Virus record (IMG/VR): IMGVR_UViG_3300045988_009865
Location: 24,263-88,262 of that record
Source: a virus
Taxonomy: Duplodnaviria; Heunggongvirae; Uroviricota; Caudoviricetes
Reading direction: 5' to 3' (one strand)
DNA: 64,000 nt
This document shows positions 56,900 through 58,506 of this stretch, in pieces. The notes beneath the pieces were generated by a model that searched no databases, was not told the DNA's origin, and saw only the letters and a program-made list of their open reading frames with translations. A program made the translations under genes and the position numbers. Every line of letters begins with the position of its first letter. The first letter of the stretch is position 1.

Positions 56900-58506
56900 C
56901 GTCTATGTAATAACCTCTATACAACCCTTTCCCTTTCCTTTCCAGAATCTTACTAGACCTTAAAAGCAATAACTCTATAGCTTACTCTATAACCTTTTAT
57001 CAAATCAACTTAAATAAAAGCCCATAACCCGAAAGGGAAGGGCAACCGTTTAAACGCTCTATAAAGCTCTATAACAGCCTTATCAACCTAACTTAAGGGA
57101 TTGCATTAACTCACCCTTAAAAGCCCTTTATAAAGCTTCCCAGAGCCTTAAAAGAATCTTATAAGGGTGTAAGCTTTATTATCTCGTTAGTATCTTGTGA
57201 ACTACTAAAAAGGGGCTTGTTAGTGTCTTAAAAGTATGTTATAGGGGCTATAAAGTTACTTCAAAGTTACGTAAAAGAGGCTATAAAGTTACGTAAATGC
57301 TAGCCCCCTTAACATCTTCTTAACAAATTCTTAACAAACCCTACATAGTTATGCTTTTAAGGCACTTGTTAGAGACTTGTTAGCCCCTTGTTAAATCTCT
57401 GTTAAGACCATGTAAAATCCTTGTAAGAGTCTTTGACATAGCCTTTAAAGCTTCTGTAAAGCCCTATAAAGAGCTTTCTTCATAGTTGGGGTGTAATTAC
57501 TAGGGAGAGGCTTAAAAGAGCTTACAAAGAGCTATAGAGGGCTTTTAAGAGGGCTATTTAGAGAATCACTAAGAGGGAAAGGGAACGATAAGACCAGAGA
57601 TAGTGACCATGTTAATAGCTTGTTAAAAAGATTAAACACTTGTTAGGAACTTGTTAATTATCTTAACAAAATAACTCTTAAAAATTAACTTGTTAGCTCT
57701 TGTTAGTCATCTGTTAAGAGACTATAAAGACCATGTATCGACTGTTAAGAACTTGTTACAGCCTTGTTAGTTCTGTTAAGAGTCTGTTAAGACCTCTGAA
57801 GAGATGTTAAGAGAATGTAATAGCTGTTAAGAGATTGTTAATGATATTTTAAAATTCTGCAAAGGGGATGTTACAGGGATGTTAAGGGCTACCAAGCAGA
57901 TATACATCTTCTACAGATATTTTTGAGTTCCTTCAAAGACCCTAAAAAATGACTTGATAGTCCTATTTTATAAAAATTTTAAAATTCTGAATAATTACCT
58001 AGACAGTCTTTTAAAAATACAGGCATAAACAGGCTTATAAGATACCTTGTTAATACCGTGTTAGACCTTGTGAGATAAGGTCTGTAAAGATATTCCTGTT
58101 AAGTTTGTTAAAACAGTCTATATAGAGGCTTAGTAATACCTAGTGAACACCTATAGAGGGTAACATAGCTGACATAGAGATTAAGAGGTGTATAGGAGCT
58201 TCTAAGAGAGTGTAGAGAGGTGGTTAAGGTGATTGTATAGGTTGTTAAGAAGGCTTGTTAGAAGGCTTGTTAGAAGGCTTGTTAGAAGGCTATTTAGAAG
58301 GTTTATACAGAGGGATATTAAGACCACTAGATAGATACTAAGATACTATATAGTACTATATAACTATATATAGAGAGTAAGCTTAAGAAGGTTGTTAAGA
58401 AGGGTAGATATTTTATTCACATATGATGGTGACCCAGAGGTTGGGACAACCGATAAAATTTTATAAAAATTAAAAAGCCCCCAATTAAGGAGGCTCTTAA
58501 GATATT
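56900..58506. repeat. ORF-free repeat-dense region (short words cttgttag / ctgttaag / ataaag repeated many times)
   Basis: No ORF of 60 aa or more in any frame over about 1.6 kb; convergent junction between + and - blocks. Confidence 0.7.
58238..58308. repeat. tandem array of a 12-bp unit (gaaggcttgtta), 3 perfect plus 2-3 degenerate copies
   Basis: ggcttgttagaaggcttgttagaaggcttgttagaaggctatttagaaggtttatac. Confidence 0.8.

Follow-up and report, generated by a model that had tools for sequence, protein, structure and literature searches.

Direct terminal repeats (DTRs) of Felix O1-like phages have already been published. Using PhageTerm, repeats of 581 bp and 613 bp have been reported for vB_EcoM-Pr103Blw and vB_EcoM-Ro111lw, respectively. 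UAB_Phi87 was checked for cos ends; direct terminal repeats were reported instead, and Bal31 digestion together with run-off sequencing gave a DTR of 608 bp. In the Felix O1 genome paper short terminal repeats were inferred, and the record was opened at rIIA by convention. In this study, we revisited the genome ends of this phage group in a 64-kb window, that is, the whole stretch of DNA that was analysed (positions 24,263 to 88,262 of the IMG/VR record IMGVR_UViG_3300045988_009865), which is a Felixounavirus (Felix O1-like) genome. Our subject is the 1.6-kb region 56900-58506 of this window and the repeats that fill it. We suggest that these repeats make up an oriented binding array which marks the DTR for end formation; both binding and function are what we infer, and we give this reading as a whole a probability of roughly 55%.

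The second described system with which the region has to be compared is the operator of the host regulator ArcA. It has been reported that ArcA sites consist of 2-5 direct repeats at 11 or 22 bp, that nearly all in-vivo sites have two repeats at 11 bp and most have 3-5 repeats, and that a 12-bp spacing abolished protection by ArcA (Park et al. 2013, PMC3798270).

Genome ends within the region

The records of three relatives, Pr103Blw, Ro111lw and NBEco005, start at the homologue of window position 57303 and end at the homologue of 57893, with exact copies of 581, 613 and 651 bp, respectively, at both record ends; in the Pr103Blw record these are annotated as a 581-bp 'short direct terminal repeat' at both ends. 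The stretch 57303-57893 aligns end to end with the published repeats of the relatives. In addition, the ZX4221 record opens at 57303, the pEP20 record opens at the reverse complement of 57893, and the record of the Erwinia phage Roscha1 (Kolesnikvirus) opens at the base homologous to the left boundary. Because relatives with determined termini open or close at the homologues of 57303 and 57893, the region is almost certainly a concatemer junction, made up of one collapsed DTR copy and two untranslated flanks, in which the limits of the DTR are set by homology. The DTR is present once in the window, the two virion copies having collapsed in assembly. A sequence-only reading of the window made before this analysis had listed a packaging signal or genome terminus among its candidate roles for the region, and both the record ends and the Bal31 and run-off result for a relative speak for this role. 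The DTR, its boundary blocks and the limits of the element are as follows (a slash marks a physical end).

57303-57893, no strand: direct terminal repeat, 591 bp, to which the exact end repeats of three related records map
57299-57315, no strand: left-boundary block GCTA/GCCCCCTTAACAT, with the physical left end between 57302 and 57303
57866-57906, plus strand: right-boundary block, composed of the last two repeats (57869, 57880) and the 27-mer TGTTAAGGGCTACC/AAGCAGATATACA, at which records end
56876-56893, plus strand: intrinsic terminator, left limit of the element, which closes the rightward gene block and is annotated at the homologous place in AYO145A
58473-58498, minus strand: intrinsic terminator, right limit of the element, which closes the leftward gene block and is also annotated in AYO145A

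The Pr103Blw, Ro111lw, NBEco005 and ZX4221 records all start within the left-boundary block, the 17-mer of which is unchanged in 16 of 22 loci and mismatched at no more than two positions in the others. The physical right end falls between 57893 and 57894; here the 27-mer is identical in 22/22 loci, and its block can be aligned even in Erwinia phages. Both boundaries are alignable in Kolesnikvirus, and the longest invariant runs of the alignment straddle both cuts. When the DTR of UAB_Phi87 is predicted from the boundary motifs, a length of 614 bp is obtained. A 20-nt inverted repeat connects the two DTR ends, and the boundaries themselves form an imperfect inverted repeat, which reads 5'-AAATGCTA/GCCCCCTTAACAT on the left and, reverse-complemented, 5'-ATCTGCTT/GGTAGCCCTTAACAT on the right. 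No stable hairpin was found at either DTR boundary.

A lambda-type cos site was considered and set aside: relatives carry exact repeats of several hundred bp at both ends. The 127-bp end repeat annotated for PC79-13 (L003 1-127, L004 2361-2487) is likely to be an assembler overlap and not a physical terminus; it falls inside the true DTR.

An oriented array of repeats in 11-bp register

The sequence-only reading had also noticed a dense recurrence of short words in the region, and counts in the region and in the other 62.4 kb of the window place this recurrence far above chance. The word CTTGTTAG is found 10 times in the region and 0 times elsewhere, TTGTTAG 10 times compared with once, CTGTTAAG 7 compared with 3 times, TGTTAAGA 9 compared with 8 times and TATAAAG 6 compared with 9 times. 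The words and a 12-bp tandem array had thus been seen, whereas the 11-bp register, the outward orientation and the terminal repeat had been missed.

The recurring words are TGTTAR direct repeats that form an array ordered in 11-bp register. TGTTAR is found at 33 sites in 57218-58393, compared with 1-2 sites per kb elsewhere, and the usual distance from one site to the next is 11 bp; the sites are grouped in blocks of 2-4, with offsets of 9 or 20 bp between blocks. At lag 11 the autocorrelation of 4-mers reaches z = 31 in 57303-57893 and z = 10 in the left flank. Secondary peaks are present in the DTR at lags 22, 31 and 20 (z = 17.8 for lag 31), and the left flank peaks at lags 22 and 11 (z of 12 and 10), while the peak of the right flank is at lag 12 because of the 12-bp tandem array. 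The sites at 57309, 57320 and 57331 are on the minus strand and nearly all others are on the plus strand, the switch in orientation falling between 57337 and 57364. At both ends of the DTR the arrays are therefore directed outward, with the first repeat 6 bp from the left end and the last repeat 8 bp from the right end. A second word family, CTATAAAG, CTTAAAAG and CTATAGAG, has the same period and occupies the left flank and the centre of the DTR. No TGTTAR clusters were found elsewhere in the genome, and a dispersed regulon was rejected on this ground. The repeats within the DTR are listed here from left to right; scores in bits refer to the ArcA matrix described below.

57309-57337, minus strand: three TGTTAAG repeats with 11-bp spacing, pointing at the left end; near-consensus ArcA-type boxes of 18.0 and 21.9 bits
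57364-57405, plus strand: four TGTTAR repeats with exact 11-bp spacing; 17.9 bits at 57388
57440-57600, no strand: central DTR segment with the second word family (CTGTAAAG, CTATAAAGAG, GCTTAAAAGAG, CTTACAAAGAG, CTATAGAGGG), period 11-12
57607-57680, no strand: four plus-strand repeats and an invariant 26-mer with the palindrome TTGTTAA-TTATC-TTAACAA; boxes of 17.7 and 15.0 bits
57688-57841, plus strand: thirteen TGTTAR/TGTTAC repeats, two or three to a block at 11 bp, with offsets of 9 or 20 bp between blocks and a block period of 31 or 20

The left-end TGTTAAG boxes score 22-23 bits in relatives, the copy number of the block at 57364-57405 changes by 11-bp units among relatives, and invariant runs are found at 57601-57618 and 57650-57675.

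Conservation among relatives

The region matches 257-285 Ounavirinae records at 76-95% identity. The matching Felix O1-like phages infect Escherichia, Salmonella, Shigella and Citrobacter, and in nearly all of the matching records the homologous region has been left without annotation. The spacing series of the TGTTAR sites recurs in Felix O1, UAB_Phi87, SUSP2 (Suspvirus) and Moogle (Mooglevirus), where it differs only by a few indels of unit size, and that of 57688-57841 is found in these four phages as well as in phiEa104. The last of these, an Erwinia phage of the genus Kolesnikvirus, can be aligned over only approximately 120 bp at the right boundary. Its 4.1-kb locus contains 27 TGTTAR sites, all of which are in the homologous ORF-free junction (ORF, open reading frame); 17 fall in a predicted DTR of 438 bp, and the spacings are 11, 20 and 22 bp. 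As in the window, minus-strand sites are found just inside the left end of phiEa104, and a 12-13-bp array lies ahead of the terminator.

Within the DTR, invariant alignment columns are concentrated in the motif cores (120/138, compared with 263/453 for the other columns; p = 7e-11). Between genera, the identity of the junction is 82-86%, compared with 68-70% for both flanking genes (56589-56837 and 58507-59100). Taken separately, the left flank has 82-86% identity with Suspvirus and Mooglevirus as against 68-69% for the adjacent gene, and the right flank has 82-84% identity between genera as against 68-70% for its neighbour. In Kolesnikvirus the flanking genes are not homologous, and the left neighbour has been swapped for an unrelated small gene. 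The indels in the alignment are of 11 or 22 bp, and the predicted DTR lengths of 569-638 bp differ mostly by steps of approximately 10-12 bp or multiples thereof. Because cores and spacings are conserved beyond the flanking genes and the motif clusters nowhere else, the region is, on comparative grounds, a cis-acting DNA element and neither junk nor coding sequence.

Resemblance to ArcA boxes

To score the repeats we used an information-weight matrix made from 115 of the 128 published E. coli ArcA boxes from chromatin immunoprecipitation sequencing, which has an information content of 15.07 bits and the consensus TTGTTAATAAAATGTTAA; both strands were scanned, and 15 bits is the genome-scan cut-off of Park et al. 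Boxes of at least 10 bits number 22 in the 1.6-kb region and 50 in the other 62.4 kb (17-fold), and of those with at least 15 bits, six are in the region, all of them in the DTR, compared with one in the other 62.4 kb (233-fold). With 21.9 bits, the highest-scoring box is on par with the best chromosomal ones. In each of five relatives, drawn from four genera, the junction contains 13-15 boxes of at least 12 bits, with top scores of 20-23 bits, and the coding flanks contain none. Pairs of half-sites are spaced by 11 bp in 19 cases and by 22 bp in 13, as compared with two pairs at 10 bp and four at 12 bp. The spacers of the three left-end repeats (GAATT, GAAGA) fit the A+T-rich spacers of ArcA boxes, whereas those elsewhere contain G and C. 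By position-weight matrix, the TGTTAR repeats are indistinguishable from multi-repeat ArcA boxes.

A binding-site array for a protein had been another role put forward from the letters of the window, and the 11-bp phasing, the conserved positions and the ArcA-box scores are in agreement with it: the arrays very probably are protein-binding sites maintained by selection. That host ArcA is the protein in question is a tentative proposal, to which we give somewhat less than even odds. The known hosts of the subfamily are all Enterobacterales, and ArcA is described as conserved in this order (PMC10653796).

Besides the aerobic NrdAB, the phage encodes the anaerobic ribonucleotide reductase NrdD and NrdG (Pr103Blw, L152 18441-22123), homologues of which are in the left half of the window; the phage is thus equipped for oxygen-free hosts, in which ArcA is phosphorylated (ArcA-P). 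TGTTAA repeats at 11 bp with ArcA boxes of 17-24 bits, often in both orientations, were also seen in unrelated uncultivated viral contigs (L107 7297-7522, L110 10872-10964, L135 4180-4500, L099 596-923 and L113 5999-6079). On L107, a contig of 169 kb, the array is in an extended stretch poor in ORFs, directly upstream of a protein with distant similarity to an Enterococcus-phage 'sigma factor'. No DNA matches of these contigs were found among isolated phages, and their TGTTAA-N5 arrays neither help nor hurt the proposal that ArcA binds the region studied here.

Flanks and gene setting

The region lies between convergent gene blocks, with plus-strand genes stopping at 56837 and minus-strand genes at 58507. 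The sequence-only reading had called it free of ORFs, and this holds, coordinates included: no ORF of at least 60 aa overlaps 56900-58506 in any frame, the longest having 54, 41, 35 and 33 aa. The true limits of the element are the two terminators, 56876-56893 on the plus strand and 58498-58473 on the minus strand, both of which face inward. In the virion orientation, the genes at both ends read outward to the termini. The features outside the DTR are the following.

56894-57302, no strand: left flank, the untranslated tail of the right arm, adjoining the right-end repeat copy; C-rich on the plus strand
57112-57169, no strand: imperfect palindrome with 26-nt arms and a 6-nt spacer, conserved in the alignment; single-strand fold z = -2.85
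57253-57297, plus strand: AAGTTAC-type direct repeats outside the left boundary and pointing to it; ArcA-matrix box of 14.1 bits at 57253
57894-58506, no strand: right flank, the untranslated head of the left arm, following the left-end repeat copy; G-rich on the plus strand
57960-58000, no strand: A+T-rich palindromic block, conserved
58045-58111, plus strand: two TGTTAR pairs (58048/58059 and 58097/58106), conserved, partly in phiEa104; 13.9 bits
58238-58308, plus strand: 12-bp tandem array GAAGGCTTGTTA, 4-5 copies, with a 24-bp length difference from Felix O1
58314-58375, no strand: ACTATATA / GATACTAAGA microrepeats, found by Tandem Repeats Finder and conserved in three genera
58413-58421, plus strand: one perfect match to the DnaA-box consensus, TTATTCACA, close to the left-arm terminator and in a block that is conserved in three genera

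The words CTCTATAA, CTTAAAAG and CTATAAAG of the left flank are in 11/22-bp register, and an invariant block, AAAGTTACGTAAA, is located at 57285-57297, just outside the left boundary. Within 57960-58000 we find ATTTTAAAATTCTG, which is present again at 57846 inside the DTR. The 12-bp array, already noted at 58238-58308, was recovered by Tandem Repeats Finder at 58242-58301 as 4.9 copies of period 12 (93% matches), and the AT microrepeats, previously described as tatata-type, at 58314-58372. The copy number of the array differs among relatives, and owing to its 12-13-bp spacing it is without ArcA-type boxes (none of 10 bits or more). The DnaA-box consensus occurs four times in the 64 kb. Neither IHF consensus sites nor Chi were found in the region.

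ARAGORN finds no tRNA or tmRNA in the whole 64-kb window, which agrees with the previous failure to see a tRNA-like cloverleaf in the region. Nor is this the usual place of a tRNA cluster, a point that the same reading had proposed to check: the cluster of the relatives is 11-16 kb from the left end, and the large terminase gene is 16.8 kb from it, both beyond this window.

Two further observations concern the genome more widely. A dispersed intergenic module of approximately 57 bp is present on the plus strand at 50737, 51209, 51588, 53265 and 54395; it consists, in this order, of CTTTACA, the hairpin GGGGCTTAA...TTAAGCCCC and AGATAAAGAGCTTTACCACT, and matches the direct repeats of 57 bp given in the Felix O1 paper. 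The 3' half of the module, ATAAAGAGCTTT, is found again in the DTR at 57464-57476, and the module may be a promoter or terminator cassette of the small genes in the right arm. GATC is absent from positions 1-64000 of the window, where approximately 227 would be expected, and also from 45 kb of the related phage Pr103Blw, whereas the next most avoided 4-bp palindromes are reduced only to 0.6 of expectation. This suggests strong selection against targets of Dam, MutH, SeqA or DpnII-type enzymes.

Discussion

According to the model that we favour, the repeats would bind a protein that polymerizes head to tail with one subunit per 11 bp, as do winged-helix proteins of the OmpR/PhoB type. The most economical candidate for this binder would be host ArcA-P, the alternative being an unrecognized phage protein of the same geometry. 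The resulting oriented nucleoprotein array would mark the DTR and position the terminase for two sequence-specific cuts in the invariant boundary blocks, TGCTA/G on the top strand at 57302/57303 and TGCTT/G on the bottom strand at 57893/57894. If opposite strands were nicked after TGCTW, the ends would carry 5' overhangs for a polymerase to fill, and filling-in would thus place a full repeat on each daughter end. Staggered nicking followed by fill-in is the classical route to the duplication of terminal repeats in T7 models. For this specific role of the array, the recognition or processing of ends, our estimate is again a little short of even. A stronger version, in which the genome ends are built from at least 30 candidate high-affinity ArcA boxes and ArcA-P coats the DTR, thereby coupling end formation, packaging or replication to the oxygen or energy state of the cell or draining ArcA-P from host promoters, we regard as doubtful; to our knowledge it would, if true, be the first case of a two-component response regulator acting as an architectural or titrated factor at phage termini.

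We also looked for proteins that could take part in this process. No OmpR/PhoB-type protein was found among 923 stop-to-stop ORFs of the phage with a weak three-sequence profile. One HTH_3 protein is present in the phage, and proteins of this type usually bind inverted and not direct repeats. The eight neighbouring proteins gave no informative Pfam or PHROG assignment, and the 82-aa flanking protein was rejected as binder: it is acidic and has no counterpart beside the junction in Kolesnikvirus. A search for the small terminase subunit gave only domains of unknown function in the ORFs between the tRNAs and the large terminase gene. A DUF5681 protein of 123 aa (E = 2e-14) is encoded in Pr103Blw at 9093-9464 (L019), approximately 9 kb from the left end, by the first gene of a rightward operon that runs through the tRNAs to the large terminase. 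This protein is a candidate small terminase, an unverified lead for which there is no solved relative and no NCBIfam name.

Several points weigh against the model and against ArcA as the binder in particular. The window holds one copy of the repeat, and its ends are therefore assigned by homology; the TGCTW/G symmetry in turn depends on boundaries with a possible error of 1-2 nt, and so short a match could be due to chance. No small terminase subunit is annotated in this phage group. With regard to ArcA, most spacers are not A+T-rich but contain G and C, a G follows TGTTA in 11/33 sites as compared with 3-4/115 ArcA boxes, the conserved block offsets of 9 and 20 bp, and also of 31 bp, are atypical of the 11/22 bp of ArcA, and the 12-bp array of the right flank does not fit ArcA spacing. 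The matrix test is moreover not independent, as the TGTTAA words at 11 bp had been noticed beforehand. These phages plaque well in aerobic culture, a condition in which there is little ArcA-P, and for this reason an obligatory role of ArcA is unlikely. Finally, in a Salmonella transposon screen, disruption of arcB, himA or himD lowered the sensitivity to Felix O1; however, arcA was absent from the resistance loci, the loci also protect from an unrelated T5-like phage, and the authors of the screen ascribe the network mainly to RpoS.

Among the other explanations, the one that survives best is that the repeats are genuine ArcA sites serving physiology, either as a redox brake or switch on replication or packaging in the anaerobic gut, or as a DNA sponge: with 20-30 sites per genome and hundreds of copies, the phage DNA would titrate ArcA-P, and host respiratory and tricarboxylic acid cycle genes would be de-repressed. 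This would be consistent with matrix scores that match those of the best chromosomal boxes, with the anaerobic ribonucleotide reductase genes of the phage, with the altered Felix O1 sensitivity of Salmonella upon arcB disruption and with the global repression of carbon-oxidation pathways by ArcA, as described by Park et al. (2013, PMC3798270). However, a sponge has no need for fixed positions, an outward orientation or a location in the DTR, and the positions, spacers and boundary blocks are better conserved than the neighbouring genes. The arcB phenotype, in addition, is shared with a T5-like phage and has been ascribed to RpoS, and the terminal repeat of T5 is without such an array. We consider the explanation unlikely.

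Slightly less probable still is that the region is a replication origin, a role that the sequence-only reading had also listed, with the repeats as iterons for a phage initiator, 57960-58000 as the unwinding element and the DnaA box at 58413 recruiting host DnaA. The repeats are indeed iteron-like, the conserved A+T-rich palindromic block is accompanied by one perfect DnaA box in a conserved context, and the terminator analysis indicates that the region is non-transcribed and insulated. On the other hand, the region has a single DnaA box and lacks IHF sites, neither an initiator gene nor any other replication gene is its neighbour, and approximately 30 kb separate it from the primase/helicase and polymerase genes. 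The change in GC skew at the region tracks motif orientation and gene direction, and an origin would leave unexplained that the densest arrays are within the DTR, run up to its boundaries and are aimed at the cuts.

It is improbable that the words are neutral products of replication slippage or unequal exchange in a spacer that provides nothing but homology for concatemer formation. The 11- and 22-bp indels, the DTR lengths of 569-651 bp and the variable copies of the 12-bp array are what such a process could leave behind, but it does not account for motif cores far better conserved than spacers, for a spacing series and orientation kept in four genera, one of them with otherwise unalignable DNA, or for a region more conserved than the adjacent genes. 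That the region encodes one or more non-coding RNAs, as the sequence-only reading had proposed, or unannotated micro-proteins, as its length and conservation and the 25-50-aa ORFs annotated here in some records might suggest, is very improbable, given that no Rfam match was found at E <= 0.1 (the best E-values, 0.17 and 0.9, are far below gathering scores), that sigma-70-like promoters are not in excess (10 compared with 7.2 +/- 2.9 in shuffles), that both terminators face inward, that indels come in 11- and 22-bp units, multiples of 11 and not of 3, and that conservation follows the DNA motif on a defined strand. None of these explanations accounts for the outward orientation of the repeats up to the cuts as well as the recognition of genome ends by an oriented binding array does.

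Most deposited Felixounavirus records have been opened elsewhere, with the true ends unannotated within this 'empty' region. The ends and the invariant blocks matter for genome annotation, for the rebooting and engineering of these widely used therapeutic and typing phages and for judging packaging and transduction. In the searchable literature we found no paper that links ArcA to Felix O1-like phages or describes the arrays. The papers and records on the relatives give only the length and position of the DTR, and the phased TGTTAR architecture, its orientation, the invariant boundary blocks and the likeness to ArcA boxes are undescribed in them. The region offers a cheap test of end recognition in a short-DTR myovirus without a known small terminase, and ArcA-P, the protein to which the array points, is a specific candidate that can be bought. 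Should ArcA indeed bind, the DNA processing of the phage would be wired to the redox sensing of its gut host, which would be relevant to a performance of phages that differs between aerobic laboratory tests and anaerobic infection sites.

Comparison with known systems

The left-terminal 'injection stop signal' region of T5 is also a gene-free, repeat-rich stretch of approximately 1 kb that is tied to a terminal repeat. Unlike the region described here, however, it is found at the inner edge of a repeat of 10 kb, and the T5 terminal repeat was found to have no ArcA-type array. The T5 stretch is tied to a two-step DNA transfer that is not known for Felix O1-like phages.

Arrays of short protein sites next to a terminase cut are familiar from other phages. 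In lambda, cosB is composed of R sites for the small terminase and an IHF site, and the pac site of P1 consists of hexamer arrays on both sides of the cut, which are helped by IHF/HU. The present region resembles both in having short sites arrayed beside the putative terminase cuts and in the possible use of a host architectural protein. It differs from lambda with its cohesive ends and from P1 with its headful packaging in having exact direct-repeat ends, and, unlike for cosB and pac, there is no IHF consensus in the region and no small terminase is known for the phage group.

A closer likeness exists to the concatemer junction of T7 and T3, which was reportedly treated by Dunn and Studier in 1983, Chung and Hinkle in 1990 and Fujisawa and Morita in 1997. 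There, too, a short exact repeat is said to be present once per junction, to be cut in a sequence-specific way on both sides and to be duplicated, and short reiterated words of the ACCTAAAG type are found in and beside the repeat. In contrast, the T7 repeat is 160 bp long, its words do not keep to a strict 11-bp register, and T7-type models have a hairpin near the right end, whereas a stable hairpin was found at neither boundary here. We claim no homology of sequence or terminase with T7 or T3.

With the DTRs of the Felix O1-like phages UAB_Phi87, vB_EcoM-Ro111lw and vB_EcoM-Pr103Blw the repeat is homologous and shares the same boundaries, and the repeat itself does not differ from theirs. ArcA sites are known at the psi site of pSC101 and at oriC. 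They have also been described on mobile elements, at the tra promoter of R1/F (PMC7303359). As in the multi-repeat ArcA-P operators of E. coli (PMC3798270), the array has a TGTTA core, a centre-to-centre distance of 11 bp, blocks of 2-4 repeats and scores of up to 22-23 bits; unlike these operators, it comprises more than 30 repeats as opposed to 2-5, and it is located at the genome ends of a virulent phage and not at a promoter.

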